Source of the DNA: Euglena gracilis
Lineage: Eukaryota
Reading direction: 5' to 3'
NCBI GenBank assembly: GCA_039621445.1
Contig: CP154954.1
Span: 44,495,847 to 44,559,846 of the forward strand
DNA length: 64,000 bases
The position numbers and the translations under genes were made by a program. How positions within the stretch are numbered: the first letter of the stretch is position 1; each line of letters starts with the position of its first letter. The notes beneath the pieces are model-generated. The model searched no databases. It was given only the letters and a program-made list of their open reading frames with translations, and was not told the origin of the DNA. Positions 1 through 56,813 of the stretch are shown here, piece after piece.

Positions 1-689
1 GGGAGGAGGGTTGCACGGGAAAAGCCACCCTCTCCTGCTCTTTCCTGAGGACGGTTCACCATCAGCGCGTCTTTTAACGACCCCCTCCCCCAGGTTGTCC
101 AGTTCAGAGGCTGGAAAACTCGGGCTGCCGGATGAAGGCTGCTGGTTGACCTTGGGGTGCCAGGCTTGGGCTGGAACTGGGCCCAACCCAGGGTCGAACC
201 GGGAACCCAAATTTCAACACTGCAAAACTCCAAAAAAAAATCTCCAATTGTGCAAAAAGACGATTTTTTTCACCCCAAATTCGTCCTGGCCAGCCCTTTC
301 CGACCCATTTTTGCCCATTTTCGGCCCATTTTTTGAAGCACCTGAAAGCCAAAATTTCATCACCGTCCAGGGTGGCTTGGAACAAATGATAAAACCCGTT
401 GATGGGGGGCGTCTAAGCTGGAAAAAGGCTGGCTGGCTCCTCCCTGGGGGTGGGATCGAATTTTCTTCAACTCACCAATCTTTCTGCATCCCTGGCTGCC
501 GTTCTGTGCCCCCCCCCCCCAAGTGGAAATCACACAAGATGACCATATCCTATTGCCCAGATTGATTCCACTTCCCGCCTGGCCGGAGAACGTCCGTCCA
601 AAATCAGTCATCACGGCCAGAAGGCAGGTCTTCAGCCCATCCCCCATCTCCGGGCCCCGCGATAAAAAAGCCACCCAGCCTGCGGGGCC

Positions 690-22329: not shown

Positions 22330-24041
22330 ACTGAAACGTGGCTGGGCCGTGTTGCCAGCGCCCCGTTGCAGGCCACCGCCCTCGCCCTGGAGCTCGCCTG
22401 GGCCGCCCAGGTCCTGCCCCCCGAGGCCCAGGCCGACCTTCGACCGGGGCCTTGCTGAATGTCATCAACAAACGTACACCCCTCAAGAAGAGTATCAATA
22501 ATAAATAGTGGTTGCATTGAGAGGATTGAAAGGTGTTGTGAACAGGGCGTTAAAGACCCCCCGCCCCTGGGGTGCAGGTCAGAAAGGTTGGCTGGCTGTC
22601 TGGAAAAAGGCTGCTGACTTACCCCCCCCCCCTTCTCGATGGGGTCCCTGGCCGTAACTGGGCCTGACTGGGGGTCGAAACAAATACCAAAAAATCAAAA
22701 CTGCAAAAATGCAAAAAATAATAATGCCAATTATGCAAAAAAAATTCCGACCCCTTTTTTTGCCCAGTTTAGGTCCTTTTTGCACATCCGACAGGGTTAC
22801 CGCATGGCCGCCTTTGGGCAGCCAGAAAAAAAAATAAACTTGTGTGGGGCTGGAAAAAGGCTTCTGGCTGGACCAAATTCTCTTTCGCAACGCCCACACA
22901 CCCACAGAATGCATTTCTAACTTCCATGTCCTTTTTGATCAGGATAATTTCATGACAGCGAAGGACGATCGTGAGTTGGATGTCCTTTGGATTTGGCCTT
23001 GGTGCTGGATGGTTGTGTCCTAGTAACCCCCCCCCCAAAAATAAGACCCGGGTCTTATTTTTGGGTCCGTTGCTGGAAGCCTCCAGGGGGGTCTTATTTT
23101 GGGGGGGTTATTTTTGGATTTTTTCTTGACCGACCGGGCCCGAAAAAGCACCATTTTTCAGGTTCCCAAGACTGCTAAAATTTTTCCTTCGGCGCTTCGC
23201 GTCATGTGTAAATTGGTGTAATTTGACATTTAAGATGTTTTTTGCACTTCAAGAATCTGAAATTTTTTGAAATTTCATCATTTTTGTGTTCGAAATTGGG
23301 GTTTTTGGTAATTTTTCAGGGAAAAATTCACCGTCTTCGCGCCGTCAAGGGGGGTCTTATTTATGGGGGGGTCTTACTTTTGGATTTTTGCTTGATCGGC
23401 CCAGGGGGGGGGTCTTCTTTTGGGGGGGGTCTTATTTTGGGGGAGGGGTCTTATATTGGGGGGGGGGGGTTACTCTCTCCTGGGAATGGTTCAGAGTGAC
23501 GATCATGCTGAACTTAATGTATCTGATGATTTATATCCTTTAAAATCAGGGTTGGTGAGTGGGTGGGTGGTGGGCGGGCGGATGGGTGCGTTCGTACGTG
23601 CACGCATCCATCATGCGTGCATTGCTGCCAGCATTTCGTCCCCAAAACAAGTGCGGCAAGCTGCAACGAGGATTTGGTAGGAACCACCTTTTGTTTTGGA
23701 CATGCTCCTATGCGGCTTCCGGGAAGCGATTGAAATGGTCCCCGGCACACTTTGGGAGCCGCCCCCCATCCCGGCAGGAGAGGCAGCGCTGGACGGTGAC
23801 CGGGGCTCGGGCGGGGCGGGGCGGAGAGGGTGAGCTGCTCGCCGAAGCCCGGCGGGGGCCGGTCGTTGGGCCCGACAGCCTGCAGGGTGATGGCGTGGGC
23901 GGAGGCGGCGGAGGCAGGGCGGCACCAGGAAGGCCTGGGGGGGGTCGACCCCCCACCCACCCCCCATGTGGGGTTGCAGGGAGTCCCGTCCAGCCCTGGG
24001 CGAAGGAGGAGCGCAGCGTGGGGGAGAACCACGGCATAAGC
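22330..24041 (-). other. Spliced GC-rich segments (24002-24041, 23749-23920, ~22330-22438); coding or UTR unresolved
   Basis: Nonconventional junctions C|gccCAG...CTGgtgcc|G and GT|gtgCCG...CGGtcgaa|G keep one frame open (AYAVVLPHAALLLRPASAASAHAITLQ...). No recognisable domain. Confidence 0.35.
23026..23470. mobile_element. TA-flanked pogo-type MITE
   Basis: TA-ACCCCC...GGGGGT-TA ends; repeated GGGTCTTATTTT motif. Confidence 0.65.
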
Positions 24042-30799: not shown

Positions 30800-31024
30800 C
30801 TACACGCCGCGGGCGAACAGCACGCGGTGCAGCGCAGGCCGCAGCGCCAGCATCGCCGGCCGGCAGTGCTCCCGGATGTCATCGTCCACAAACAGGAGTG
30901 GCGCGCCCCCCGCGGCGTGGGCGGCGATGACCGCCGCCTTCTCCCCACCCTGCCGGCCACCCACGACGTGGATGGGCAGCGTGGCTGGCGCGCCGTGTGC
31001 CGTGAGGAACGCCTGCATGGAGTC
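30800..31024 (-). CDS. HAD gene last exon (motifs III and IV)
   Basis: DSMQAFL...EKAAVI...LLFVDDDIREH...RVLFARGV*. Confidence 0.85.
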   Translation of the reverse strand, partial: DSMQAFLTAHGAPATLPIHVVGGRQGGEKAAVIAAHAAGGAPLLFVDDDIREHCRPAMLALRPALHRVLFARGV

Positions 31025-34000
31025 GGGGCAGGTGGGGCCGGGGTCGGAGCGGGGGAGGTTTGGGTGGAAAGAGCCGGGGCCCTAGTTTGGAAGCCGAAAC
31101 AAACAGAAACATTTTGGCAAAGCCCACACCTTCTGTTGACCTTGGAAACTAAATTGCATGAAAATCGCCATTTGGCCATTGTTTTGGGCCTTTCGGGAAT
31201 TCTGCCCTTTGATGATACCCTGCGTTCCAAATGGCCAGTCACTCTTTGACAAGCTGGTAACATTGGAACACCTTCTCCGGCCAAGGACCGTCCTTCGGGC
31301 GCTTTTTCGTGCATGAAATACGTATTGCCAACCTTTTCTGTGCCTTTGAGTACATAGTGCACAATGAAACGTCATTCTTCAACAAAAAAAAAAAGAAGCA
31401 AAATGCAACTCCCCCAGTGAAATGAAGCGGATAGTACACGCGAAGCGAAAACAGATCGGCTTAAACACTGGGCGGCGTCGTGTTCGGCGAGGGACCCCCT
31501 GGGAGAGGTGCGGGTTCCGGGTCACGATGTGCACGTTGGGGTGGGCGCAGCAGAGCGCCACCAGCAGCGGGTCCACCGTGTGCTGCCCAGCGAGGGGGTC
31601 CCCGCCGGACGCGCGCAGGCCGGCTGGGCCTGGGCATTGGGGCAGCATTGGGCATGCCCGGGCATTGGGTGTGGGAGGCCGGTAGGGGGCGAACCTCAGA
31701 GCTCATGCCAATGGCAGCGGAGGCACCACTGAGGCAATGCACACTCCCACAACCTTGCGACCAACCACTTGACGGTTTGTGCACGGTGTGAGGGGATGTG
31801 TCCAATCGCCAGTCCAAGGGAAGACAATGAGCAGGGAGCAGGGTTCGATATAAGGAGGGGGGGGGGTGGTCCGGACCCCCCCCCCTGCGGGCCAGGAGGG
31901 GGGGGGGGGGGGGGGGGACACACCCCCCACCTAAACAGTGGCGCGGTCAGGGTGACCGATTTTCGGCCCGGCGCGAAGCGCCGGGCCGAAAAAATTTTGA
32001 CCCCCCAAAACGACCAAAAGTGCCATTTTGGGCACTTTTTGGGCAAAAATGTGCCAAAAATGCAAAAAAAATTTTGGCGCAAAGCGCCGGAGGAAAAAAT
32101 TGACCCTTTTTGGGGGGGTCCCGGGCACCCCCCGAGGGTCGGTCCAGACCCCCCTGGCAGGTGGGGGGGGGTGGTCCGGACCCCCCCCCTGCGGGCCAGG
32201 AGGGGGGGGGTGGGGGGGACACCCCCCCCACCTAAACCATGTACGCCCTCCTTATCGAACCCTGGGGGGGTCTCGGATACCCCCCGAGGGTCGGTCCGGA
32301 CCCCCTTGCAGGTGGGGGGGGGGGTGGTCCGGACCTCCCCTGCGGGCCAGGAGGGGGGGGGGGGGGGGGGGACACCCCCCCACCTAAACCATGTACGCCC
32401 TCCTTATATCAAACCTTAGCCGGGAGGTCCTTTTGCAAAGGAAATGTTCCACCTCAATGAAAAAAATCCAGGGAAAATGGCCAAGAAATGGTCGTCATAT
32501 TGCAAAAAAAAGTTCAACCTGGGGGGAAAATGATTTCTGGCATCCTTGGGCCAGTTTGTCCATCCACCCAAAACATAAAAAATTTTTTCACTTATTTCAG
32601 TTTCAACCTTCTGACCCTTGGGCCAGCTGAGATGGGTCGATGGTTGAGCATAGAGTTTTTTCCCATCCAAAAAGAAAAAAGTCCGCAGAAAGGCGGGTGA
32701 AAAAAGCCCAAAACCTTCGACTTTTGGCGCTTTAAGCCGAAAAACATTTGCAATTGCGACAAAAGTTTACCTAAAATGGCTGACTTTGGGTAGAGAATTC
32801 TTCAGCCCGGAGCTTTGCGCAACACCGAAAAATTGGCAAACCTTCCGAAAAGGTGTCCGCCGACCGGGGGTAGGGGTCATTGGACAAAGAGGACGTTGGA
32901 AGTGGGGGGGTGACGGCGGTTCTTAAGGGGTCCTTTACAAAAAAAAGAATCTGTTCCCTCAAGGACCACCCTGACAACGAGGCAGCCGCCTGGTCCGCGT
33001 GGAGGCAACCGTGCGATCGAAGTCCAGGAAGACGGCCCCTGGGTGAAGTTGCTCCACCAGCTCCATCCCGGGCAAGCCCGTGCAGCCCATCAGCCCTCCC
33101 CAGCGTCAGGCCGTGGGATTGAACCCTGGTGTGCCCGCCCTCCAGTGCCGGTGTCGGTGCCAGACGCTGCCGCTTTCCACGTGGTGGTGGGAGGGGCTTG
33201 GGCACCAGCTCGCCGTCCCCGCGCCACAGGGCGCAGGCCTCGCAGCTCCACAGGTCGCACACGAAACACTTGGCGGCGTGCGGGCAGAAGGCCTGGCGGT
33301 TGCAACTGCTGCGGAAGGGGCATCCCCTCCGGGGCCCGGCGCTGGCGTGGCCCTCTGAAGCAAACGCGAAGGGCACCGGCCTGAGACCAGTTTGCAATGT
33401 GTTTTGAGCGAGGATGCAGCAACAGCCTGACGGCGTGACTAGAAGAAAACGTTACGCAAGGACTGTGGCCAGATCACCTGGATGATGTTCATCACACATC
33501 ATTTCAGGAAGATACCTCTCACTATTAAGAAAGGTTGGTTTTTATTTAAAATGTGGTTGTTGAGTGGAAAACCAATCAAGCTGGAAGGAATGCCTTTGTA
33601 GCCGCTGGTGGTCACGTACTGCACCCTCACCTAAAATCAACACAGCCCAATGTTTGAGGAAGAAAAAAAAGGGGTTTTGACCGAGACCCGGTTGTCCCTC
33701 AGCTCGGGCGGTGGTCTCACACCGCAGGCACACGCCGCGGTTCACCCAAACCTTGTTGACGGGGCGGGCGCACACCGTGCACGGCGTGGAGCCGGAGAGG
33801 TGGCGCTGCGGCAGACATTGGTCGGGGGCACAGCCCTTTCCCAATTTGTGGTGCTACTTCTTTTGTGGTGACAGGGTTGATCAATTTTCGGTCCAGCTTG
33901 GAGCGCTAGGCCGAACATTAGCCAACGCGCCATTGTTCACAGCAGCTGTTCTGCCGCTCCATCAAAAAAGGATGGAAAGCGAGGGGCAGAGAAGCGCTGT

Positions 34001-37000
34001 GGGCACCGTGATCGCTGAAGGCGGCCACCATGTTGTCCCACAGCGGCGCCACCGCCCACCGCACCTCTGCCAACAGCTGCGGCAGCTGGAAGTCCTGCGG
34101 GAGGAAGTCCGCCGAGTGGTGCCGACCGAGGCCCGGCTGTCCGCTGGGATCCCCCCCCCCGTGTCGCAGCGCCCTGAACGTTCGTGTTGACAGGCGAGCA
34201 GTCATTGCTGGACTGTGAGGTCCAGTCGCACTCCCATCGTGGGGTTTTGATGCAGGCTCGAGGGATCTGCGTGCCTGGCGGCCCCCGGGGCTGGCGGGGC
34301 CGGGGTCGCCGATGCGAAATGTAGGGCGGTGCGGGCCTTGCCCCGGGGAGCGCAGCGGCCGCTGGATGACGGCCAGCCAGCGGAGCACTTCGCGGGTCAC
34401 GTCGGCGATGCCCTCCAGGGTGTGAAGGCAGCCACCCCGCTCGCACTGCTTAGCCAGTGCCTCGCCATCCAACACCATGCAACCCATCCGGTTAGGAGTA
34501 TCCACTGGGTTAGGTTGGTTGCACTTGGAGGGTCGTCCTCCCCTTGGACAAAAAGGAACTGGCTTCCGAATGTTTCACCCCCAACGTGCAATCAGAGACC
34601 GGGGCAAATGGGTTCCAAACAAAAGAAATACATAAAGCATGCGGTCAAGGACCGGGCAGGCTTCTATTTACCATTCCCGGGGCCAGGGGAGGGGAAGGGG
34701 GGTGTCTTGTGCTATGGGGTGCCCTCGGGGTCAGTTTTGGACCCCGGTGCCTGCCGATAGAGGTAAATTTCCCTTGAAAATAGCCATTTTCGGGCCCTGG
34801 TGCCTTGTCGGGGGTGTGCTATACCCACCCCCAAACCCTCCCCAACGGTGTCGAGAATGCCCCACTCCCTGCGTGCCCATAGTACCCCCCCAGGGGGGTG
34901 CGCACTTCTTTAGAAAGAAGCCTGGACCAGGCACCTCCAACCTGCGGTAAATGACCGTGGGTGGTCCTTCGAGAGCAAACCAAAAAAAAAACTGTTACCA
35001 TTGTCAACTGTTATTTCTTCCAAAGGAAATGAAAAGGTTCCTCTGCCCTGAAAAGACCCTAATCACCACACAGGACAGGGGTCCCCCCGAATGGAATATC
35101 AAACGCCAAAGACAAATGGCTGTGGCGACGGTTGTACGGGGGCGCTGGGCGGAGGTGCATGGCGTGGTGGATGCGGTCGCTCAGCACGCCCGGGGCCGGC
35201 TGGAACGCCCGCAGCGCGGAGAGGGCCGCCGGCAGCCGGGCCCCGACCCACTCCAGGCTGGCCTCCAGGCGGGCCACCAGGTCCACGATGCGGAGCACCT
35301 TTGGCGGCAGCGCCGGGCCCGGGGAACGCGCCGCACGGGACGCCTTGCTGACCCCGACTCTCGACTCATTGAGTAGGTCTCTGAACCCCCGGCCGAGCTG
35401 CCCCCCCCCCTGCGGAGGGGGGGTTGGGCCGAGCGGGTGCCCAGGGTCACCAGAATCAGTCATCTATTTTTTTTTAACCCCAGAATTGGCCCCCCAAAAG
35501 TGCCGCCCCCCCCCCCCCGGAGGACCCGCCCTAGGGGGTGGGTGGATAGGTCCGGACCCCCCTCCCCCGGGTCCTCAAAAAAAAAGGCCTCAAATCCCCT
35601 GCCTCAGGGGATCCCACCCCCACCCCCCACGAAAACTTAAAATCTTCTACGGGGGATGAATGAAAAAAAAACCGACACACAGCGAATGGCCTTCATTGCT
35701 ACACGCACTCTTTGCTTTCAAGCCGATGCGAAACACCAGCTGCAAACAGGCGTCCTTCGGCAAACGACTGGTTTTGTTTTGCTGCACAGGGAAGAGGAGG
35801 AAACCCTTGCGGTGAAATGCATCGCAAGTCCCGGAGATAATCCGATGAGGTATCCGGCGGGGATCCCCACAGCACGGTGCTGAGTGAGACCCCCCGGGCG
35901 ATGAAGACCTTCTCTGTGTAGGCAAGGATGTGGGCTGCCGGAAGGCGGAAGCCTGAGGACACCCACCCCGAAAGCTTCCCTGCCTTGGCGGGGCTTGGGC
36001 CGCGAAGGGGGCGAGGACGGCGGCGGTGGTGTTGGGGGGCGGGCACCCCCTTTGGCATTGTGAGGAGGAGGAGGAGGAGGAGGAGGAGGAGGAGGAGGAG
36101 GAGGAGGAGGAGGCTCCATCGAGCTGCAACAAAGGCGTATTGGATAAATGGGGAACCAAACAATGGGTCGGGCCATAGAACACCGGCCTGATGGTTGGGA
36201 TCATCGTCATCGCTATCATCCTCCTCCTGACAGACAAAAAAAAAAGGCGTTGAGATTGGCAACGAGGACAAAACCAAATCAAATACTGCAGATGACCCGA
36301 ATTGTTTTTAAAGCACTCTTCTTTGACACCAATTTCTGAAAACGCGCCATAACTTTACAGAGGTGCAGGCAGGAAAAAAAATTTTGGTGGGAAATCCCAC
36401 TGGGAACAATGCATTGTGCTTTGCTGTAGCCACTTTGATTCATGAGAATGGAGCGTCCACGGAGGTGTGATCCTGTGAGAGAATGATGGTCGGTGCCACA
36501 CCATTGTTGGCCCTGCCCAGTGAAGAGATGTTCGATTGTTGTGCCCCATAAACCGCGCAGTACAGACGCGCGCAAGTGCACACACAGAGAGACATCCACA
36601 CACAGACAAGCAAACCCAGAGGGTGCGCACACTGTGTTTGGATACCATCGAGACGTTGTGTTGGGCCCAAAAAGGGGCATCCTCTGATCAAGAACGGCGT
36701 GGTCGGAAGGGAGGTTGTGGCGACCGCACTGCTCTCGCCCGCATGGGCCCGAATCCACGCTTCCGCCCGCTCCAGGGCTCGCGCGACGCCCAGGCTGTGG
36801 GGCAAAGCCACGGTCTGGCTCGACAAAGGCAACGAAGACCGATCAAATGTGGGGCAACGGTCAGAGGGCCAGCCCTTGGGCAGGGCACGCAAGGGCTCGG
36901 GGACCGCTGGGTCTGCAGCAGCTGGAGGGGTGTGAGGAGAGCCAGGGACGCGATTTACCGGGGGGGGGGGGTATGTCGTTGTCCAGGACTGGTTAAAACA

Positions 37001-39930
37001 AACGTCCGTCCCACCGCATTCAGGGAAAAATCCACCGGAAACATGGTTGAAATGGTGGTGCATTCTGGCAGAAGGAGGTCGAAAATGGGGAAAAGGTGGT
37101 TTCTGGCGTCCCTGGAAAACGTCCATCCACCCAAAACATCAATCACCCGTTTGCTGCTCCTCAGGTCTGAAAGGGATTAAAGGTCTTTAAGGGTCCTCAG
37201 TTAATAAGAAATGCCGTCCATTAAAGCACCCTGGCAGGTGATACAGGTAGGCCCAGTGGAGGGGTGTCGGACCCAAGAGGAAATCCTGGCGTTGGGGGGG
37301 GGGGGGTCGGATGCCCCCCCAAGAATGGAGGTGGTTGAACTCCCCCCCCACCACCCATAGGGGTTCGGGGACACCCATACAGCCCTGGAATGAGGGTGGT
37401 GCAAGTGGCCCACAAAGGACGACCTCTGAGCACATCCCTGGCCTGAGACGGGGTCAGTCGCTTTGCTGTTTGATGCCGCGGGCACACGCGCTGCGTGGCT
37501 CTCGAATTCTGCTTCACTGCCTGACAAAAGAAGGGTGACCGGCGGTTTCAAGGCAAAGCCACAGCGCACGTGGTTGTACGGCCGGGGAGTGCGGCGCCGC
37601 GCTCCGCTCGGCCCGGGACCCACGAGCCCCCGGCATCCCCGTCGGGGTGCCTCGGGACGGAGCAGATCCACTTCGTGAACGTCCGGGCGTCCGTCACGGC
37701 CAGCAGCATCCCCTTCAGGCGGGAGAGGAGGCACGAGAGGTGGACGTACCGCTGGTGCTCGGGGGCCTCCGCCGGGGTGTGCAGCAGGTCCAGGGGGTCT
37801 TAAAGACCCCTGGGGGGGGGGGGTCCAGCTCAGAGGCTGGAAAATTTGGGTTGGCTGGAAAAAGGCTGCTGGTTGACCCCCCGGGGCGGGAGCTAGGCCC
37901 GACCTGGGGTCAAACCAGGCCCAAAAACTTGAAATCGCAAAAATGTCCAAAAAATGCCAATTATGCAAAAAAAAGAATTTTTGACCCCAAAAATGCCCTA
38001 AACAGCTTTTTTCAAACCCATTGCACCCATTGCACCCCTGAAAGCAAAAAAAAATACATTACTGTCCAGCCGCCTGAATGGCGGATGCAAATAAATAAAT
38101 CTCGTTGATGGGGGGGGAGGGGGGTCCGGGGTTGGAAAAAGGCTGCTTGGCTGGATCTCCCCCAGGTGGGGTCAAATTTTATTCAACAGTGCCCTGAGCA
38201 GGTCGCAGTAGTGAAAGACGCACAGCCGTTTCAGCTGGCGTTCGACATTTGAGCAGAGGGCTTTGGCGCCAGGTGGAGGCCAACACCCCCTAAAAAAATA
38301 AATAAACACGACACTGACACGGCAGGGGTAGGAAACTTTGCACCAGCAATGAGCACCTTGGAAATCTTTCGAGAGATTGCCAAGCCCCGTCCCGTGGGGG
38401 GAAACCTGACTTCACAACAAATGCATGTTTCAGTCAGCACCATTCTCCAGTGAGCAGCATCTTCCCTGTCGACTGCCACATCCCTCCCCCTTGGATTTAA
38501 ATTGAGACAATCACCAAGCACCCATGGTCATCCAAATTTCCAGACCCAGTCACGCTCAGTCGCGCCAAGTCATGTCACGCCATGTCAGTCTCATGCAGAC
38601 ATGGAAAAGGTCAAAATTGGCCAAAAGTGGCTAAAAATGGAGGGGTATTGTTTATGAGGGGATGGGAAATGCCTCCCTGGAGGCAAACAACCACCCCCAG
38701 GCACCAGCCTCCCTGGCTCTTCAGAGAAAATGCTTGAACCAGAAATGTTTGACTTCAAAAATTCACGTGCCAAACGGAATATACTTGATGGAATGACCCA
38801 AGCGTCGGTGGCAGAAAGACACTTATGGAAACACAAAGCGACCTCTGGAAGGGCAGCCTCCTGAGCTGGGCTCAGGCTGCCCATAAATGTTTCAACGGCA
38901 GCAACCCATGGAAGGCATGGACAGGTTGAACAAACAACAAGAGAACGGAATGTGCACTGAATGAAATGGGGTTTGGGGTGGGGCTGGGTGGGGGCCAATT
39001 GGACTTGGGACATTCCAATCAGAGTATGGGTGGGGGGCAGGTTTTGAGTGTTGGAAGGACAGTAGGGGTTTTGAGGGGACCGCCCCCTTTACAGATGGTC
39101 ATTTTTGGACCCTTCCAACACCCCCCGAGAAAAATGAAAATTTGTCACAAAAAATGGCCACTCTAGGCCCCCAAAAAAGCCTCAAAATTTTTTCGACGCC
39201 TTCCGTGCCAGTTCTTGGCCATTTGGGGGGGGGGGGTTGCAGTGGGAACCCCCCTTCTCAGTGCTGATTTTAGAACCTTTTGTGAACATTGCCAACGCTG
39301 CGTTGGGTTCAAAGCCAGGTCGCAGCGGGAGGATCGGGGATCAAAAAATAAACAACACAAATACGCATTCCAACTTGAAGAAGCTCAAAATGTTAAAGGG
39401 ATTTACCAGCAAAACAAGAAACACCAACCCAAATATAAAATGTTCCGGCATTAAATTTGGGTAATCCACCAAAAAAAATTCATCAAATTGTTGATCGCAA
39501 GAGAATGTGTCAGAGAAAAAGCTTGCCAGGGCTGCTAGGTCAGGTTTCGGGGGACTCTGGTTAGGGGACCACCCCAATGTGGAGGCCATGTCTGCAGATT
39601 TGGAAAACATCATCTCCAGAACATTCTACCTGCAGGAGGTGAAGCCTGATAAAGATGAGGAACACCTTCTTGAGCTGCACGAGCTCCTGGCGGACCATGA
39701 ACGCCTCCGGTGGGGCCGCCTCCTTCTGGCGGCAGCCCCAAAAAGAAATCCAGAGGGCATCGCACTGCCTCGGGGGTGTGGCAATGTTTCAACACAGAAG
39801 GGGAGGGGGCGAAGGAGAAGGCGGAGCACGGCCAGCTCCCGGCAACGCTCCAGGATGCAGCCCACCACAGCGGCGGGCAGTGAACCCTCGAGGTCGCGCT
39901 TGGCCGCTTCGAGGGAGTAGAAGCCAGAGC
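30800..39930 (-). CDS. Large multi-exon protein with Cys clusters and a C-terminal HAD-superfamily phosphatase domain
   Basis: Well-defined exons: 38200-38289, 33204-~33381, 32996-33067, 31505-31610, 30800-31024 (TAG). Approximate exons: 39772-39930, 39630-39727, 38715-38915, 38406-38520, 37620-37785, 37425-37520, 36690-36922, 35815-36051, 35135-35368, 34260-34505, 34005-34180, 33690-33855. HAD motifs FLDFDRT, HIVTRN, EKAAVI and LFVDDD. Start uncertain (possibly the ORF starting at 40644). Confidence 0.75.
31505..31610 (-). CDS. HAD gene exon (motif II)
   Basis: SGGDPLAGQHTVDPLLVALCCAHPNVHIVTRNPHL; acceptor CTGcgcgc|G. Confidence 0.8.
31839..32418. mobile_element. hAT-like MITE with duplicated right end
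   Basis: TIR CAGGGTTCGATATAAGGAGGG / TAAGGTTTGATATAAGGAGGG; flanks GCAGGGAG / GCCGGGAG (7/8); internal second end near 32264. Confidence 0.75.
32996..33067 (-). CDS. HAD gene exon (motif I DxD)
   Basis: MELVEQLHPGAVFLDFDRTVASTR; junctions TTGcccgg|G and CG|gacCAG. Confidence 0.85.
33204..33381 (-). CDS. HAD gene Cys-rich exon
   Basis: CPFRSSCNRQAFCPHAAKCFVCDLWSCEAC. Confidence 0.8.
36062..36112. repeat. (GAG)n microsatellite
   Basis: About 17 GAG units; reads as a (CTC)n pyrimidine tract just before an exon on the minus strand. Confidence 0.9.
37791..38196. mobile_element. hAT-like MITE that constitutes a whole nonconventional intron
   Basis: CAGGG...CCCTG flanked by perfect AGCAGGTC (37783-37790 and 38197-38204); related copies at ~63-480 and ~22543-22900. 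Confidence 0.85.
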
Positions 39931-41573
39931 ATTGCAAGATGTTGGGACAGGGAGTGCCAACTTCAGCAACCATGGCATCCCCCCCCCCTACAGCTCAAAA
40001 GATGGAAAGTCTGACTTTAACAAACAAACAACAACTCTCACAATTTCGCAAGAAACAATTCTCACAAATTCGCAAGGGACCCTCATCCTGATTGGTGATT
40101 ATTTTGTGATAATTCATGGTCATTTGTGATCATTCTACAAAAAAAGCGTCCAGCTTCTCACTGGATACTTTGCAGTCCCTGGGCATCAGGAATTGGAGGC
40201 TAGGCAGTCAAGTTCGGGTCCCCAAACCCCCCCTGTCTGGTTCGGACCTCGACAGAGGGTCCCGCGGGACCCCCATTGTATTTTGTTAGTCCAGCCCCCG
40301 GACCCCCCTCCCCCCACCGACCCGTCTGGTTGAGTTCGCAACTCGACAGGGGGTCCCGCGGGACCCCTCCGGGCCCCATTCCAATAAACATTTATGATAA
40401 AATACAAATTTGCAGTGTTTTGTGGCATTTTGCAAGGCTCTGTGAAAAATTGCAGAATTCCCATTTTCTGCCAAAAAAAATGAAGGCTGTTGTAGGTGCC
40501 TGGGTCAAGCTCAATTTTAAAAGCAGGTTTTTGCTCTAGGGTTGTTGGAGGTTTTTTGGTTACAACCTGGGTTATAACCTGCCTTTTTGGCTTTTTGGGT
40601 TTTTTGCTCCCTGGAATTGGTTTTTTCACAACCCTGTTGCCCATGATTGTTTTCGTTCAATCAGAGGGACGAATTCAGTAATGAAAGAAAATCTGTTTTT
40701 TAAATATTCTTGCTTGTTTGTGTTTATTCGTGATTATTTGTGTGTTTATTCATGATCTGATGATGATTTGGAAAATCCAAGAAAAATTTTGCTGGTTTGT
40801 TATTATTTGTGATCACCCTCACCCCCCGCTCAATTCAACGTGAAATTGGCTTGTTTTCAAATTTTACCCCCCCAAATTGGCCACCTTGCCTGGGAGGAAA
40901 AATTCCCAAAATTCCCCAAAAAAACCCAAATAAAATATATAAATTGGTATAAAAAAAAGGAAAAAAACATTTGGCACAGAAAATCGACAGGAAAAACTCA
41001 AATTGATTTCTGTCTCTCCCACAAAAAGTGGCCTTTTGTCTTAGAGATCTTAGTGAAATTGTAAAGAATTGTGCAACTTCTTTGCAGTCATTCAGCTTTG
41101 TCAAAGAAAAAGTTTTCATTCACTCCCTGAAAATGAGGCTCCACATCAAGAGGGCAGAGCCCAGGTACGCCTCTGTTGATGTGAGCTGCTTGGGCATAGT
41201 TTATAAATTGCGTTGCATCTGCCCATGGCGGCTCTGCAAGCACATCCATTTCTGATACAACAAGACAACGTTGAAAACAAAAATGGCAGATGACTCAAAA
41301 ACCATAGCCAACGTCTGGGGCACAGTTCAAATTGGGTTGGGGCAAATCGAGAAAAAATTGAAATGCCTATGAAATGTGCTATGGCAGAGCCGGGGCATCT
41401 CTTAAGCCAGAGGCACCAATCCCCCGGGGTGCCATTTTCCAGCCTCGGACCCCGTTCCCCCAGGGCTTTTGTGTTCCTGATTCATTATTATTTCTTCTCA
41501 TGGACTGTCAGAGGGGTCATTAAACAACCCTCTGGGTGGAGCAGTACCAGTGCAAGGTGTCTCACCCCTTGTG

Positions 41574-41574
<1 letters not shown>

Positions 41575-41604
<30 letters not shown>

Positions 41605-41628
41605 ATGCGTGTGTGCGTGCATGCGTGC

Positions 41629-41666
<38 letters not shown>

Positions 41667-41720
41667 GTGTGTTTATGTATACACACATATATACATATAT
41701 GTGTGTGCATGTGTATGTAC
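41575..41720. repeat. (TG)n / (TGCG)n microsatellite
   Basis: Directly visible; further tracts at ~42070-42170 and ~45300-45350. Confidence 0.9.
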
Positions 41721-44700: not shown

Positions 44701-44810
44701 TAACAATAGCACAAAAATAATGGTGGATTTTAATTGATTAATTTTAAGGAGGCATGGGGCACGACCTCAAAATAAAAACCCGTCGGTTGAAAATAGAGCA
44801 AAAATACATA

Positions 44811-45242
44811 GGAGGCTAGGCGCGCCGCTCGGGGGGGTCCGGGACCCCCCCTCCCCCCCCCCTGCGCGGCCCCTGCGCGGCCGCCCGCGCGGCCGCTCGC
44901 CCCCCCCCTGGCCCCCCCCCACTGTGCCTGGCATAGCCAAGAAAAAAAATTGGTGAAAATCGCGATTTTTTGAGGCCCAAAAATGACCAAAAATGACCAT
45001 TTTCGGACACAAAATGGCAAATTTGGGGGCCGTGCGCTCTGCGAGCGACCAAAAAAGCTCTTTTTTGGTCAAAAAAATGGCCCAAAAATGGCAAAAAATG
45101 ACCACTTTTTGGACCCGAAAATCACCGATTTTAGGATGCGTTCCGCCCGCGCGGCCGCCCTCGGACCCCCCTCCCCCCCCCCCGCGCGGCCGCCCGCGCG
45201 GCCGCTCGCCCCCCTCAGCCCCCCCCACTGTGCCTAGCCTCC
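44811..45242. mobile_element. Harbinger/Tourist-like MITE, copy 1
   Basis: TIR GGAGGCTAGG; 3-bp TSD ATA. Confidence 0.85.
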
Positions 45243-47560: not shown

Positions 47561-49368
47561 AATTGCAAATTCCCAGTCGCAAGCGACAAGGTCCCGAGTC
47601 CGGCCTGAGTTATTCACCCTCCACCCCCCCCCGGAAAGTGGCTGTAACTCGGGCTACACAAAGAGTCGGGAAAAATAAAGCATGGTTGGATGGGGCATTC
47701 CAGCGGCTTCATTTTTGGCTCCGGACATTTCCTTTGATTTTGCTTCATTTCCAAGATATTTGGGATACATGGTTTTTTGACCAAAAAAAAAAACACCAAA
47801 AAACTCCCCAAAATGGCTGTTTTGGGCTCCAAAAGCGAGCCAAAACACGGGGCAGGCGTGCCAGCGGTGATAGAGGGTCTCCAAGGCAACGTTTTAGTCT
47901 CACCGACAGTTTTGTGCAGCGTGCAGCTTTTTTCGAGAGATTTTCGAAAAAGTGCTTTTTGACCGAAAATCTCCCCCTGGCGAAATGGCAGAGTCGAAGC
48001 TGGGAGGAGTTGGCCAGAGCCAGTTTGGACCACTTCACAATTTTGGCCCTCAAAAATCGATGTTGCGAAAATATGTCGGAAATGTAGCAAAATGAAAGGA
48101 AGTGTCTGGTATTTTTTAAGGACCCGGGGGTCCATCCTCCAGCTGGGAAAAAAAACGAGCTGCTGGCTGGACCCGGGGGGATAGGGGGGGAGGGGGGTAG
48201 TCCGGGGTTGGAGGGCTGGGCTGGGCTGGGTCAATGAAAAACAAAATTTTCTTGGACATTTTGCCTTCTCGACATTTTGATGGATGAAGCTAGATCAAGG
48301 CTGGATCGGGACTGGAGGAACAGCCAACTTACCTCCTGACGCATGCCTGGTCCATGGTTGGAGCTTGATCAAGGCTGGATCAGGTCGGCAACCGTTTCGC
48401 AAAGCAGTCATCCACTATCACTCAGGACAGCAACCAGTTGGCTGGCCCGGCCCTCGGCCAGCCAGCCCGGCATCCGGCCGGGATGGACCCAACTTTATTT
48501 CACTCGACCCTCCGGCCCCTGCTGGTGGCCCAAATTGCTGTCAACCCAAACCGAAGCCCCCGAACCTGCCTGAGGGTATTTCAATATCCCCTTAATTCCA
48601 CGGCAAAATGGCCATTTTAAGCTGTTTCGCAAATCTATGCTGTTGTCGACTTGGCTGTTTTCAGGCCATTTCCGGGCCAAAAAAAATCAAAATTTTCAAA
48701 ATATCTCCAAAGTTTTGGGGAATCAAAAGAAATTTCTACGGGCATAGAATTAAATCCCCGGGACCCCCTATAGGCTGCCTGGCCCCAAATACAACCCGTT
48801 TTGGCTGCTTTCCGAGTCAAAAAAAGTTGAAAAATTGCCCAAAATTGCCCAAAACGATGTTTTTTGGCAGCCCCGGAAATAAAAATGTTTTCGAGACGAA
48901 AATGAGTTTTTCACCACCCGGCCCCCCGTTCTCGGCCCAAAGTGCATGCATTTTAAGTCATTCCAGTCAAAAGGGCCAAAAAGAATTCCGGGACAAAAAA
49001 AAACAAAATTTTTTGTCCAAAACGACTTTTTTGGCTCCCAGACCCTGGCTGGGTCGGGCCAGGCCGCCAGGTATGGCCGAAGGTCAGCCCTGGCACCCAC
49101 ACGCCTCAAACATCCATTGCATTATGGCGCCATCAGGCATGTAAAGAGCTCAACAGTGCACAAAACCCGGTCAATTCGGGGTGGGGCAAGGAACATCGTT
49201 CCCAGGGGGAGCCCGACGACTGGCCGACGCACAAAGCACAAATGTTGTTAAGCTTAAGTTGCAAATGCCTAGTTTACACCAGTGTCGAGTTCTGAGGCAA
49301 AATCCTAACCCCCCCCCTAATAAGTGCACGGGTGCGCACATTTTAAGGTTGGGACGACTAGTCGACTA

Positions 49369-49547
49369 CCACCCCCCCCCCTTTATTGTCCCACCGACCT
49401 GCCCCCGGGAGGCCCGACCGGACAATAAAGGGGGGGGGACAATAAAGGGGTACCAAAGGAATTTCATTGGCCGGGCCAAAAAAACCCCCCGTCGGCCGGG
49501 GCCCAGGGACAATAAAGGGGGGGGACAATAAAGGGGGGGGGGGGTGG
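49369..49547. mobile_element. TA-flanked pogo-type MITE (ATTGTCCC family)
   Basis: TA-CCACCCCC...GGGGTGG-TA; other copies at 53409-53589 and, inverted, 55242-55405. Confidence 0.8.
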
Positions 49548-51096
49548 TACATAGTGGGCATTTTTTTTTTGCTTTTTTTTATAATAAAAAAAACAAAACA
49601 ACATATTTTTTTTAAAAAAAAACTAAAAAAAACATAAAAAAAACAAAAGGTAAATTTCATTGGAAAAACTCGTTATGAAACTCCCAAACCATACTTTGAA
49701 TCCTACTCAGTTCAAAACTGCCAAAAATGGTCAAAAACATCCCAAAATGCAACAAAAATGGAACTTTATGACTTTTTTCATTTTTGTGGAAGGAAGTTTT
49801 TGGCAGAAATTACCCAGAAGTTGCCAAAATGATTGAAACCGTGTTTGGGCCGATTTCGAGACTTTAAAAGTCTTAAATCTTCGCCCAAAACACGGTTTCA
49901 AACAAGAAAAGTGTTTTGGGCCAAGGTTTTAGGGGGGCCCAGGGGCGACCACGGCGCCTTCGGCGCCGCGGTCCCCGCCCCTGGGCTCCCCCTAACTCTG
50001 GCCCAAACACAGTTCTTGACACAGAAAATGTTCATTCAAAAAATTTTCCATGCAAAACCCACTGGGCTTTTTTTTTGTGTTTTGTTTTAAAAAAACATTG
50101 TTAGAATTAAAAAAAAACAAAAAAAACAGGCCGCCATGGTCGACTAGTCGATTATTCGTTTGGACCCCAAAACAGGATTAATTGTTCATGCCCAAAACGA
50201 TTAGTCGTGAACAGATTTGCCTTTTATCAAATTGGAGTGATGCCTAGCATTTAGGGGGTATTTCTGGTGAACAAGGAAGACATCACAAAGATGAAGGCTG
50301 CCACAAAGGGGATCTACTAATTGACAGATTGAGGCGGTAGCCTCTGCAATCGCGGCGAAATGTGAGATTCGGTTTCTCAGTATGACTTGCCAGGTTGAAT
50401 TAAGACTTGCCTTTTCTGGTTGCTATCAAGCAATCAGAAAGCACGCCATCGCCAAGCATCAGGAGCCGAATGGAGGACTTCGAGGGCCTCGAACCCCAGG
50501 GCTAATGCCCCCTGGCGGAGTGAAGCAGAAGCACAGGCGAGAAAGTGACATCCTTGAAAGCCACACACTCTTAAAGAATTTTCTCCCCCTTGAAATTTCT
50601 GGTTGCTTTTAGTGGGCTTTGCTCATTTTCATTCCCACAAAGCACATATTAGTTGTAAATAACTCTCACCACCTACGGTGTCGTGAACCGTTAACCCTTC
50701 ACCCGCGCTTTGCAAATGTTGTAAATGGAATGCCCCATCGAGTCCCCTCGGGATGACATGGATTGTACACTTCTGTCCCGCCGGAGCCCCATGTATATAC
50801 AAGGTACACGCCGATGTATATATTTTCATCGACGTGAAGACATCGCAACAACAAACTAGTTCAATAAATATCACCCCTGTTTTGAGGTTGTTACTAGCTC
50901 AGCAGTATCAGGTTTGAAGAATGAGTAGGATTGTTTTTTTCGGAAAAATATAAAAAATTTCGGAAAAATTTCGGAAAAGTTTTGGAAAAATATTTTATAT
51001 AAGGGAAAGTGACCTCACGGTTGAGAACACCCGAGAACTGCCCCCGAGGCCCTGCCCATGCCCTCTTTTTGCCCCGTAGGTCGCGAAGAGGAGTTA

Positions 51097-51579
51097 GGAG
51101 GCTAGGCGCGCCGCTCGGGGGGGTCCGGGACCCCCCCCCCACCCCCCCCCCCTCCCCCCCCGCGCGGCCCCCTGCGCGGCCGCCCGCGCGGCCGCTCGCC
51201 CCCCCCCTGGACCCCCCCTCCCCCCACTGTGCCTAGCATGGCCAAGAAAAAAATTTTTGGTGAAAAAATCGCGATCTTTTGAGGCCCAAAAATGACCAAA
51301 AATGACCATTTTCGGACACAAAATGGCAAATTTGGGGGCCGCGCACTCTGCGCGCGGCCAAAAAAGCACTTTTTTGGTCAAAAAAAATGCCCAAAAATGG
51401 CAAAAAATGACCACTTTTTGGACCCGAAAATCACCGATTTTAGGATGCGTTCCGCCCGCGCGGCCGCCCTCGGACCCCCCTCCCCTCCCCCCCCCCCTCG
51501 CGCGGCCGCCCGCGCGGCCGCTCGCCCCCCCCCTCAGCCCCCCCCCCCCCCCCCACCCCCCCCACTGTGCCTAGCCTCC
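51097..51579. mobile_element. Harbinger/Tourist-like MITE, copy 2
   Basis: Near-identical to 44811-45242; TSD TTA. Confidence 0.85.
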
Positions 51580-52665: not shown

Positions 52666-55034
52666 ATGTGCAAAGAACACGAGCATTTCAAAGGTCGCCA
52701 GAGATCATCAGATTAATTGTCGAAGGGTCCATAGGATGTTGCAAAAGATGCTTCATCTGGAGGAGATGGAACGCAAAGGGCAGTCGATGTGGGGTGTCAC
52801 GCGCATGAGTGGGTCTGGTCGACCAGCTCACCATCCAGCCCTTGATCAGTTGGTGCTGGATTGGATGCAAAAAAAAGCCATCAAGGTGTTTGGGGGTGTT
52901 CTCCCCGCATCCCCCCGCGTCCCCTCCCCGCGTCCCCCCCCCCCGCGTCCCGGATTTTGGCCTGGCACATTTTTTGGTTGACCAAAGGAAAAGTGCATAC
53001 AAATTTGGGTGACGCCAAAGAAATTGTGTGGGGTTGTTGGGCCATGGTTCCCCCCCGCGTCGCCCCCGCGTCCCCCCTCGCGTCTCCCCCCGCGTCCCGA
53101 ACCACCCCCTTCAGCTTTAATGCAAGGATCTAATCCCATTCTCACCAGGTCTGCAACTTTAGCAAAGGCCGCAGAGATTTGAGTTGCAAACGGCCAACGC
53201 CCCCCAAAAGAGAAATGGCTGCGAACGTTCCTCGCCCGATATCGACTGTCTTTGAAGACACCAAAATGCGCAGGTGACCCTCTTGCGCATTAAAGTGACG
53301 ACAATTAAATTGATAGCGCAATAATTGGCAGACCGGTAATTGGGGGCCACAAGCGATTAACCGTTTCCTCAATTAACCATGGTTAATTGGTTGTGATGGT
53401 GATTGATACCACCCCCCCCCCCATATTGTCCCACCGACCTCTCCCCAGGAGGCCCGCCGGGACAATATGGGGGGGGGGGGGACAATATGGGGGTACCAAA
53501 GGAAATTTCATTGACCGAGCCAAAAAAAACCCCTCGTCGGCCGGGCCGAGGGACAATATGGGGGGGGGACAATATGGGGGGGGGGGTGGTAGGTCGCAAG
53601 TGGGGTATCAAATTGGGTATGTTGTCATCTTGAATACCGATGGAGCGTTGGGGCAATTTTGGGGTCATTCTGAAGGAGGCTAGCGCTCGGGGGGGTCCCG
53701 GACCCCCCCCCCCGCGCGGCCCCTGCGCGGCCACCAGCGCGGCCGCTCGCCCCCCTTCCGCCCCCCCCCCCCAACTGTGCCTAGCATAAAACTGACCTGG
53801 GGGTTTCGGACCCCCCCTCCCCCCCCCACGCGGCCGCCCGCGCGGCCGCTCGCCCCCCTCAGCCCCCAGCCCCCCCCCCCGATGTGCCTAGCCTCCGAAG
53901 CCTTCGGTGCTTCACCATGTGTTGCTGAATGGTTTGCGAAGTTGTGACCCTCTCCCAACCCCCATGGGTCACACTCTGAAATTCTGAACGGAGACAAAAT
54001 GATGGACGTATTGCGGGTCTGAGGTAGGAAAAATATCCCAACAAGGCGCTTGAAGAAGGAAATCAAACAATTTCCATACATAGACAGTCCTTGTTGTCGC
54101 CGCAGTGAAGGAAAACAGGATGTGTTTCAACCGCAATCTCAATGCTAGGCGAGGGAAGCCTAAACCCCCTTTGAACACACAAAAGCTCTACATCCCCCCA
54201 CACGCACTTTGTCCTGAGTCCGGGGGGGGGGGGGCACAGAGTTTGTCCGAAGGACAAAGTCCGTGCCTCCCCCCCCCCCCGGACTCGGGACAAAGTCCGT
54301 GTAGGAAGGGTCTTGCTACAAGTCCGTGTACTGCCCCCCTCTGACTCAGGACAAAGTTGGTGTATCCTAATGAGGAACATTACTATCACTCGGGGTACAT
54401 TTGTCTGTGTCTTCACAGCTCCATGTTGCCCGCACAAGTCGTGAACGTCGCTGAGGCTGCCTTGGGACCGTTGCCAACACCTGCGGAGTTGTTGGCAGGG
54501 TTGAAGGTGGCAGTTGAACCCCAGAACACGGAAACTGCGGACACAGTGCTTTTTGGGGATATTTTCAGCCAAACTGTGCCCCAGCCTAAGGGCAGCGTCA
54601 GAAGGGGGATATATTGCCCTTGCCAATTTTCAAAAAGTTTGCGAACAGCGAGGCTATGCCACCACTGATTTGGATGACCTCATGGTGGCGTTTGCAAAGT
54701 GGGTGCTTTCGGTACACGGTTTGCATGGCGCAGAAGCCGAGAAGATTGCAACGAAGGCACACATCATCCATCACACTCCATCACAAAGGCTACCGCGGTT
54801 GTGATGGAGAACCTACCCAACCCCTTCCCCTGCGGCCTCAAAGCTGAGACCACAAAAGACCGCATGGATGGCAAGCGCCCTATGGACTGTGACTCGTGCC
54901 ACAAATTTTGGCACCTCGATTGCGCAGGCCGTTCTATGCCCCCTCCCCGCAACAGTTGGTGTTGTCCTCATTGCGTCGGCCAGGAGATGCCTCCCTTGCC
55001 AGCTCGTGTCGAGAACATGAAGCGAAAGCAATGA
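52666..55034 (+). pseudogene. Decayed pogo/Tigger-type transposase with C-terminal PHD finger
   Basis: CENP-B-type HTH SGRPAHHPALDQLVLDWM...TRSATLAKAAEI*...KWLRTFLARYRLSLKTP (52666-53270); degenerate DDE start (AEWFAKL*, EILNGDK, TVLVVAAV; ~53920-54170); PHD CDSCHKFWHLDC...WCCPHC (~54885-54975). Has stops, frameshifts and MITE insertions. Linkage of the PHD part is inferred. Confidence 0.65.
53675..53896. mobile_element. Harbinger/Tourist-like MITE, copy 3 (internally deleted)
   Basis: Same ends; TSD GAA. Confidence 0.75.
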
Positions 55035-56813
55035 GGGGGACACCAACTGTCTGCTACCGTTTTTTCCCCTGGAGACATTCAGTGGCACTACGAGTCCCTT
55101 GACCAGGTTTTTACGGTAGCTGCTCCCCATTCCCTCCGTGCCGCGTCCCAACAGCAAGAGGATGATTGTTCTGGGGATCCATTCGCATTCGTACGGGTGG
55201 TGGAAACATGAAGGTGGCCATTGGTGGAAATGGGGGGGGTACCCCCCCCATATTGTCCCCCCCCATATTGTCCCTCGGCCCGGCCGACGAGGGGTTTTTT
55301 TGGCTCGGTCAATGAAATTTCCTTTGGTACCCCATATTGTCCCCCCCCATATTGTCCCGTCGGGCCTCATCGGGAGAGGTCGGTGGGACAATATGGGGGG
55401 GGTGGTACACCGGACTCAGGACAAAGTCCGCACCCCCCCTATAGGTGTAGGAACAATTTTTTCCGGGGGGGGGGGGCGAGCCAAAAAAATTTCCTTGGCA
55501 CGACCAAAATGTATTTTTTTCTGTCCTCCTGGCCCCGAAGGGGCCGAGACCATGGGCTTTTTTAGCCTTTGGAATCCCTCCCCTGGGGGGGAGGGGTAGG
55601 GTTGGTGGGTCCCTTGGACCCCTCTCCCCTTTAGGGGGGGGGGGGGGTTGGGGCTGTGGGTGTATCTTTTTTGGCGCTGAAGGCGCCAAATTTTTTGGAA
55701 AAGGTGCTATTTTTGGCACTTTTTGGCCATTTTCGGGCAAAAGTGGGTGGGTCTTCCGGGACCCCCTCCCCCCGGGGGGTTCCACCCCAGGGGGTGGGTG
55801 AGTGGGTGCCGACCCCCTCCTCCCCCCAGTCTTAAAAAAACCGGGGCCCAGGCACAGGGGGGAGGGGGGGTCCCGGACCTCCCCGTTCACTTCTGAACTG
55901 AACTGGACATGTTGACTTCCTGGAGGAGGGTGGGTCCGGCGCCGAAGGCGCCGAATTTTTTTTGAAAAATGCCCTACCCAGCCTCCAATGCCAAAAAAAA
56001 AAAAACTTGAAAGCGAAATCATGGGCAGAATCCCAAAAAAACAATTAGTATCAAAGGACGAGCCTCAAGGGCTTTATTTCGGCCGCCAAAGGCGGCCGAG
56101 ACGGTAATGGATTTTGCAGTTTCATTTTCTAGAAATGTGATTTTAATTAAAAAGGTGGCTGCCGAAGGCAGCCTAGATGGTAACGCCCTTTGAACCATTG
56201 ATCATGTCATTGCAAAGGAAACTACAGCTAACACCCATATTCTTGAGTCAAGAATGACAAAATCTTTGACATGAATTTAACTGAATTTTTGAATTTTTTT
56301 GACAAGATCTTTGGAATTTTTAGACAAAATTTTAGGAAGATTTTGACCAATTCCAGAAATATTTTGACAAAATTTTTGAAGCGTTCTGGACAAAATCTTC
56401 GATCCATTGTGGGCGCGATTTTTGGGCATCCGCATTTTTCTGGGGAGACATTTGCCACTGGTGGAATGGGAGGAAGAGTCACGTTCATTGTGCTACAGGA
56501 TGTTAAAATATACTACACCAACAAAGAATGTGAAATGGTGGATGGAACTGATGAAAGTGGCCAAAAACAGAAAATGGCGACCCGTCTGAAAGTTCCCCCC
56601 CCCAAAAAATCGAGTCCCAGGAAAGCGTGGATCACTGCAAGGAGGGGAACATGAAGCCAAGGGGAGCCATTTTTAGCAGGGTCACTTGCGACGAGGGCGC
56701 AAATTGTTGAGTTGGGCAGCTGGGCTGCAAGCTCAGCATCCAAACGCTCAGCTATGGCATCAACAGCCTCGGCCGGAGCGTCGTCATGACGCTCGGTGTC
56801 CAGGCCATCATCT

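Follow-up and report, generated by a model that had tools for sequence, protein, structure and literature searches.

An intron of Euglena gracilis that consists of one dispersed-repeat copy and one copy of an 8-bp direct repeat

How the nonconventional introns of euglenids arise is a question whose answer has been called unknown or 'unclear' in papers from 2014 to 2025. The question is raised in a concrete form by a locus in a 64,000-nucleotide (nt) stretch of the Euglena gracilis genome (assembly GCA_039621445.1, contig CP154954.1, positions 44,495,847 to 44,559,846 of the forward strand; this whole stretch is referred to as the window, and all positions below are counted within it). Here, a coding exon of a gene on the minus strand is interrupted by a 406-nt member of a dispersed repeat family, which is bracketed by two copies of an 8-bp sequence. 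The intron of this gene at 37786-38199 consists of this repeat-family member and one copy of the 8-bp duplication, with no further base, and this conclusion is supported by the data described below. The explanation that is considered quite probable is that a non-autonomous DNA transposon, resembling a MITE (miniature inverted-repeat transposable element), inserted here, duplicating 8 bp of its target site, and is taken out of the message as a nonconventional intron.

A first-pass annotation had described a 406-bp CAGGG...CCCTG element inside a perfect 8-bp repeat within coding sequence, and its coordinates and lengths are all confirmed (Table 1). The two copies of the perfect direct repeat (AGCAGGTC) bracket the insert on either side within the coding exon, and the length of this repeat is exactly 8 nt, as seen when the intron is drawn at 37783-38196, from where it can be slid by 0 positions to the left and by 8 positions to the right. 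The first bases of the insert are CAGGG and the last bases are CCCTG; its terminal ~20 nt read CAGGG.GTCTTAAAGACCCC, and a GACCCC motif is subterminal in both arms, at unequal distances from the ends. In the sense RNA, the near-palindrome formed by the first 22 nt of the element is predicted by a minimum-energy fold to be a local hairpin beside the 3' splice site, which would hold the 3' CUG of the intron. The open reading frames (ORFs) that cross the element (37204-38058 on the minus strand and 37539-38105 on the plus strand) have no Pfam match. A terminal A-run is absent on both strands, on which ground a reading of the element as a short interspersed element (SINE) or another retroposon is rejected.

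That the 37786-38199 region is an intron, absent from the mature messenger RNA (mRNA), is well supported. The minus-strand open frames flanking the insert (37548-37799 and 38172-38411) are in the same frame, and deletion of the 414 nt at 37786-38199 joins ...RQLKRLCVFHYCDLL to HTPAEAPEHQRY..., generating the in-frame sequence ...VFHYCDLLHTPAEAP.... This in-frame junction, on removal of 406+8 nt, had been proposed in the first-pass annotation; the translation is reproduced, and it is colinear with an orthologue. The orthologue (P0001, 626 residues, with a transcriptome-derived name and 85% identity) was found by a search with the downstream frame, and across the site it reads ...HIERQLKRLCVFHYCDLLHTPSEAPEHQRYVSL... 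(also given as ...FHYCDLLHTPSE... and RQLKRLCVFHYCDLLHTPSEAPEHQRY), with a single DLL. When P0001 is aligned with the window by tblastn, its residues 106-124 are at 38252-38196 and its residues 122-187 at 37790-37593, and the two blocks flanking the insert overlap only in DLL, which are the residues encoded by the 8-mer. Because P0001 is colinear without a gap and has one DLL, exactly 414 nt are missing from the message.

Four sequencing runs were aligned to 33500-41500: the raw RNA run X21, the runs X15 and X16 (taken to be RNA by guess) and the DNA run X2. Record 8 of X16 behaves as complementary DNA, having contiguous record positions on 33694-33822, 34004-34120, 34292-34423 and 35151-35281, which are exons of the host gene. 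Record 5 of X15 (389 nt, depth 31.4) lies with its positions 1-141 on 37642-37782 and with its positions 271-386 on 39828-39943. The first of these pieces ends at 37782, directly ahead of the 8-mer, where the predicted junction falls when it is drawn as far left as possible; that the alignment follows this leftmost convention is confirmed on the junctions 33822/34004 and 34423/35151. The 129 letters between these two pieces of the record fit two small exons, at ~39711-39640 and ~38253-38197, and the record can be aligned gap-free to P0001 only when one 8-mer is kept. In the raw RNA run, there are 49 reads over 8 kb and no joint above the listing threshold. The earlier claim of an mRNA junction near 37785/38200 is in agreement with both the colinearity of P0001 and the RNA-type X15 contig ending at 37782.

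The intron can be drawn in nine equivalent placements, from 37783-38196 through 37791-38204, which all yield identical mRNA. The borders of these placements are GA..TG, AC..GG, CC..GA, CT..AC, TG..CC, GC..CT, CT..TG, TC..GC and CA..CT, and GT/GC-AG borders are found in none of the nine. The nonconventional code of Euglena, as given in the available text of PMC12501133, consists of CAG/CTG motifs that are weak, a donor spacer fixed strictly at 3 nt, an acceptor spacer of 5 nt with some leeway and an acceptor exon that begins with a purine. In the placement 38199/37786, CAG is at +4..+6 and CTG at -8..-6, with spacers of 3 nt and 5 nt; at both junctions, T is followed by G (a pyrimidine followed by a purine), and the downstream exon begins with G, a purine. 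The nonconventional type with a CAG/CTG code, as assigned in the first-pass annotation, is thereby borne out, one placement having all features of the code. The sequence features support the view that this intron belongs to the euglenid nonconventional type. Its ends can pair through CAGGG and CCCUG (5 bp), and, by analogy with other such introns, it may be removed via the spliceosome-independent, circle-forming pathway known for them.

The 406-nt element is not unique in the window. A blastn comparison within the window finds matches at 97-279 (71.5% over 186), 419-471, 22594-22627, 22650-22744 and 22846-22872, and a profile constructed from three copies covers 67-479, 37792-38195 and 22543-22933, such that the copies are co-extensive. 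In pairwise comparisons of the three copies with 300-400 nt of their flanks, the similarity is confined to the element in all three. The three copies all begin with CAG followed by a similar stretch of ~20 nt (CAGGGGGTCTTAAAGACCCC, CAGCGCGTCTTTTAACGACCCC and CAGGGCGTTAAAGACCCC), and the DNA upstream of this start is unrelated; the loose-end consensus from another copy in X15 reads ...CAGGGCATCGTTTAATGACCCC. The relatives that had been pointed out at ~63-480 and ~22543-22900, with their shared strings, are thus real by blastn, profile and string checks. Translations around both relatives show no clear exons, and both are in DNA without a gene model.

The word depth from the DNA run X2, which is not a copy number, is 241,890 in the bin 37772-38038 and has its maximum, 966,903, at 37851; for the single-copy contigs listed it is 20.9-43.2, about four orders of magnitude below the element core. 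Loose ends gather at 37818/37819 and at 37862-37882. A single-copy status of the element, which had been named beforehand as a finding that would speak against its proposed nature, is therefore not the case, considering the two in-window relatives and the very high depth of the core. The label 'introner' that was given to the element in the first-pass annotation goes further than these data, as neither in-window relative has a recognisable duplication or a demonstrable whole-intron status. No other repeat family in the window has CAG...CTG ends, and the G-rich motif matches of the 3' part of the element elsewhere in the window are other repeats. A metagenome scan with the 20-nt core motif gave 14 loci, none of which is alike beyond 20-26 nt, and no euglenid DNA.

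With respect to the chance expectation, a scan of the window for CAG...CTG with k-mer flanks gives 302, 77, 16, 14, 4, 5, 2, 0 and 0 cases for k=4 to k=12, respectively. The sole other non-homopolymer case with k=8 is at 15471-16559 (CACAGAGG); its flanks look non-coding, there is no inverted repeat beyond CAG, and this stretch is probably a chance occurrence. A slide of at least 8 is rare at a given intron, being found in 175 of 300,000 random pseudo-introns of the window, and the 8-nt slide at 37783-38204 sits on a junction that is fixed independently by the orthologue and the RNA-type contig.

In the proposed mechanism, a MITE-like element of ~400 bp, belonging to a very abundant repeat group, would have entered a coding exon of a conserved gene, and this insertion would have duplicated 8 bp (GACCTGCT on the sense strand), generating the sense-strand layout of 5 nt, 3 nt, CAG...CTG, 5 nt and 3 nt. 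The element's own CAG/CTG ends would then be the recognition pair, with the duplication providing the 3-nt and the 5-nt spacers, and the nonconventional pathway would cut 3 nt before the 5' CAG and 5 nt after the 3' CTG. With these cut positions, 3 nt and 5 nt outside CAG/CTG, the 414 nt lost (406+8) would therefore be exactly the element and a single copy of the duplication, and the frame present before the insertion would be restored. Because the CAG...CTG end pair is its own reverse complement, the insertion is predicted from this geometry to work in either orientation. The duplication was presumably made by a transposase, and the insertion is likely to be recent. In agreement with this mechanism, all 8 spacer bases are identical to the adjoining exon bases, and the inverted end pair of the element matches the splicing code. 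The proposal, already made in the first-pass annotation, that 3+5=8 reflects a duplication is logically sound and fits a second published case (in the available text of PMC4770533); as a general statement it is less secure, since it draws on two cases and five other nonconventional-type introns of the host gene are without such a trace.

It is conceivable that the 8-nt repeat was generated by double-strand-break repair, in which a staggered break is filled and loose repetitive DNA is captured as filler, no transposase being involved. The same explanation is given, in the available text of PMC4770533, for gapC, where a newly gained intron has an 8-nt repeat, and the element's inverted repeat of just 5 bp and the relatives without duplications would be in agreement with it. 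A random fragment, however, would not be expected to share its extent and its CAG start with two other copies, as the insert does, and the ends of the insert form an inverted pair that matches the splicing code. The repeat length of 8 in two independent young introns also suits the fixed staggered cut of an enzyme and, by this analogy, a transposase would fit better than repair; break repair is regarded as improbable. A still more doubtful history is that the repeat entered, or took the place of, a nonconventional intron that was already there, in which case the 8-nt repeat is coincidental. The host gene has many nonconventional-type introns without such repeats, and the bare pattern of CAG...CTG with an 8-mer is not rare in the window, but the intron has no base besides the element and one 8-mer, and slides of this length are as rare among pseudo-introns as described above. 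Equally far-fetched is the arrival of the intron as RNA, by which an excised circular nonconventional intron is reverse-spliced or reverse-transcribed into the exon. Circular RNAs from such introns have been reported (cited in the available texts of PMC11282704 and PMC12501133), but in such a transposition, the 3+5 outer nt should derive from the donor locus. Here, all 8 of these bases equal the neighbouring exon bases, as expected from a target duplication, which therefore argues against this route.

Several observations weigh against the insertion of a MITE-like transposon. When the outer 30 nt at one end of the element are compared with the reverse complement of those at the other, the perfect terminal inverted repeat is just 5 bp, where MITE terminal inverted repeats usually are at least 10 bp, and no Pfam family, a transposase included, is matched by any of the window's 150 longest ORFs. 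A target-site duplication is recognisable at neither of the two in-window relatives, and the last ~9 nt of both differ from those of the 37791-38196 element; because of these differences and missing duplications, the 3' end of the family unit is not fixed to the base. The high repetition (at least 95% likeness) is limited to the ~60-nt core and does not extend over the whole 406 nt. The pattern as such is not in excess in the window, as there are two cases in which CAG and CTG, at a distance of 40-3000 nt, are bordered by perfect 8-mers other than homopolymers, compared with a mean of 1.02 in 100 Markov-1 simulations, 27 of which gave at least two such patterns. Five other nonconventional-type introns of the host gene match in 2, 5, 2, 3 and 2 of the 8 positions, compared with a background of 2.04, and if they arose by the same route, then the trace of the duplication is gone. 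The junction 37782/38197 is not among the joints listed (15 of 60, this listing being dominated by repeat-derived DNA joints), its position being inferred from the piece table, and the RNA label of X15 and X16 is by guess only. Also, the minimum-energy fold (434 nt, z = -1.72) leaves the intron ends unpaired, with the 3' CUG in the local hairpin.

If the element is a MITE-like transposon, then both hAT and Merlin are candidate superfamilies. The element ends CAGGG/CCCTG would fit the terminal pattern of hAT elements. The description 'hAT-derived', used in the first-pass annotation, claims more than is warranted, as only the 8-bp duplication and the CAGGG end favour it; the inverted repeat is 5 bp, and neither a hAT transposase nor an autonomous partner is found among the 150 longest ORFs of the window. 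The 8-bp duplication fits hAT but is not diagnostic, since Merlin elements in Euglena likewise have 8 bp (PMC8101967, available text). It is possible, although unlikely, that the MITE was mobilised by a transposase of the Merlin type (IS1595-like) or of another 8-bp-duplicating superfamily and not by hAT. According to the available text of PMC8101967, Merlin is represented in the Euglena gracilis assembly by two families, in which the DDE motifs are conserved and the duplications are 8 bp long, and literature searches gave no description of hAT elements in Euglena. However, Merlin inverted repeats are 24-462 bp with a conserved terminal GG, as given in the same text, and the element at 37791-38196 starts with CAGGG and has a 5-bp repeat.

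For a kind of intron that had been hypothesised, the one at 37786-38199 is a concrete example, and its reading as a transposon insertion is well supported. The MITE hypothesis for these introns dates from PMC3935182 (2014), at which time, as far as its available text goes, no transposable element had been identified in euglenids. In the available text of PMC11282704 (2024), CAG/CTG are drawn as inverted repeats and target-site-duplication-like (TSD-like) repeats are discussed, and the hypothesis is repeated in those of PMC11170887 and PMC12621601. This earlier idea was based only on short inverted ends and 'TSD-like' repeats, with no repeat family linked to an intron. In literature searches, with subscription journals and supplements outside their scope, no paper was found in which such an intron is linked to a named repeat family, nor one that equates the 3+5-nt spacers with an 8-bp duplication. 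Here, at one and the same locus, a dispersed repeat has CAG/CTG ends, is flanked by a perfect 8-bp duplication and leaves an exactly restored message, which illustrates how euglenid nonconventional introns may arise from mobile DNA.

A wider idea, which is put forward tentatively and with less than even confidence, is that the 3-nt and 5-nt spacers are in general the two parts of an 8-bp duplication, that any CAG...CTG transposon in an exon, in either orientation, is a ready-made intron, and that the removal machinery is an RNA-level excision tuned to one transposon group. If true, the reading of the spacers as a duplication would explain why ~70% of the introns in these genomes are nonconventional and most of these 'slidable', and it would account for the spacer lengths that experiments have measured. 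When the 8-nt case already in print is added, the question of the origin becomes a countable one, through a possible excess of exact-8 slides at CAG/CTG and a possible clustering in repeat families among the hundreds of thousands of RNA-supported junctions that are available, with 649,158 junctions published for E. agilis.

Table 1. Positions of the intron, the repeat-family element and its relatives, and the host gene in the window
Feature	Positions	Strand	Remarks
Left copy of the 8-bp direct repeat AGCAGGTC, read as target-site duplication	37783..37790		Minus strand encodes part of D-L-L
Right copy of the 8-bp direct repeat AGCAGGTC	38197..38204		
Repeat-family element, 406 nt, CAGGG...CCCTG	37791..38196	+ (orientation as in the two in-window relatives)	No coding capacity found
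Terminal inverted repeat	37791..37795 (left arm, CAGGG); 38192-38196 (right arm, CCCTG)		
Near-palindromic first 22 nt of the element	37791..37812		Begins with CAG and ends with CTG by itself
Highly abundant core of the element	37819..37882		Weaker second motif copy at 38130-38147
Intron by the published nonconventional code	37786..38199	-	414 nt, GCT-CAG...CTG-GACCT
Downstream exon	37576..37785	-	Begins LHTPAEAPEHQRY...; bounded at 37576 and 37782 by X15 records 4 and 5
Upstream exon	38200..38253	-	Ends ...NVERQLKRLCVFHYCD; upper boundary approximate, 38248-38265
Host gene	30803..41249	-	~16 exons/blocks, tblastn-colinear with the 626-residue orthologue P0001
Relative A of the element	63..482	+	~72% identical; start CAGCGCGTC; no recognisable duplication
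Relative B of the element	22543..22933	+	75-89% in patches; start CAGGGCGTTAAAGACCCC; no recognisable duplication

The host gene product is a conserved euglenid protein. A Pfam search of P0001 finds no family, and a protein search at near lengths finds no match; the C-terminal part of the host protein (FLDFDRTVASTR..., FVDDDIREH) and a Cys-rich block resemble conserved domains of unknown kind. A rule-based pass over the 15 host-gene introns gives a nonconventional-type placement for seven of them and leaves eight without an assignment. The introns 4, 8, 9 and 14 use CAG/CTG, and the introns 6, 10 and 12 use CTG/CAG, CCG/CGG and CGG/CCG, respectively; GT/GC-AG is found in none of the best-scoring placements of the 15 introns. 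The host introns at 34121-34291 and 33325-33693 have CCG/CGG and CGG/CCG at +4/-8 instead of CAG/CTG, and CCG/CGG-type derivatives of CAG/CTG are mentioned in the available text of PMC12501133. Inside host introns, at 34568-34834 and 40175-40441, the X2 word depth is 11,984 and 6,198, compared with ~40-100 nearby, and these are other abundant repeats. At the four exon positions 37598, 37606, 37632 and 37641, every raw X21 RNA read has a base other than that of the window (C>T, G>A, G>A and G>T, respectively), and the X15 and X2 contigs match the window at these positions; the X21 mismatches point to another strain, allele or paralogue.

The surroundings of the host gene have further repeats. 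A three-copy repeat on the minus strand (49367-49549, 53407-53591 and 55242-55406), whose copies are 85-93% alike, is unrelated to the element and consists of GGGACAATAT-G-run units that surround a short palindrome. Two-copy repeats, each ~89-90% identical, are at 44809-45226 and 51095-51545 and, in inverted orientation, at 56073-56224 and 63181-63332. At 32111-32407, a 152-bp unit occurs twice inside a long intron, and simple repeats are found at 36062-36113 ((GAG)17) and at 41570-41672 ((TG)51).

When compared with known mobile elements, the 406-nt element shares with hAT-superfamily MITEs the 8-bp duplication, the length of ~400 bp, the non-coding nature and, in its CAGGG/CCCTG ends, a probable fit to the hAT terminal pattern; it differs from them in its 5-bp inverted repeat, and no transposase or autonomous partner is seen in the window. 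Merlin of Euglena gracilis (PMC8101967, available text) is likewise a DNA transposon in the genus with 8-bp duplications, but it has long inverted repeats starting with GG, which the element lacks. Introners in Micromonas and Aureococcus, like other spliceosomal introns of transposon origin described in the available text of PMC11282704, are also short non-autonomous DNA transposons in exons, and the message is restored when the element is removed with one of the two target-site duplication copies. These introns are spliceosomal, with one splice site carried by the element and the other arising in a 3-nt duplication, whereas here both motifs (CAG and CTG) are the element ends, the duplication would give only the 3+5-nt spacers and the pathway would be the nonconventional one; also, the copy at 37791-38196 is the only one shown here to be an intron, and not copies at many sites.

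The intron resembles the nonconventional introns of Euglena gracilis and E. agilis described in the available text of PMC12501133, with which it shares the lack of GT/GC-AG, the CAG/CTG positions, the 3/5-nt spacers, the acceptor purine and the slidable borders. The host gene has such introns in abundance, CGG/CCG-type derivatives among them. The published genome-wide analysis excluded the slidable introns (84.4%) and called the origin 'unclear' (PMC12501133, available text); the intron described here differs in being, as a whole, one recognisable copy of a dispersed repeat, and in having a full and perfect direct repeat of 8 nt. An 8-nt repeat at a newly gained intron of Euglena agilis was published in 2016 (PMC4770533, available text). 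This intron, gapC intron 4 of strain ACOI 323, is likewise nonconventional, has eight-nucleotide direct repeats and is judged young; it shows presence and absence between strains, has, as far as that text goes, no repeat family and is read there as break repair. The intron at 37786-38199 does not have an empty site, but it does have the repeat family.

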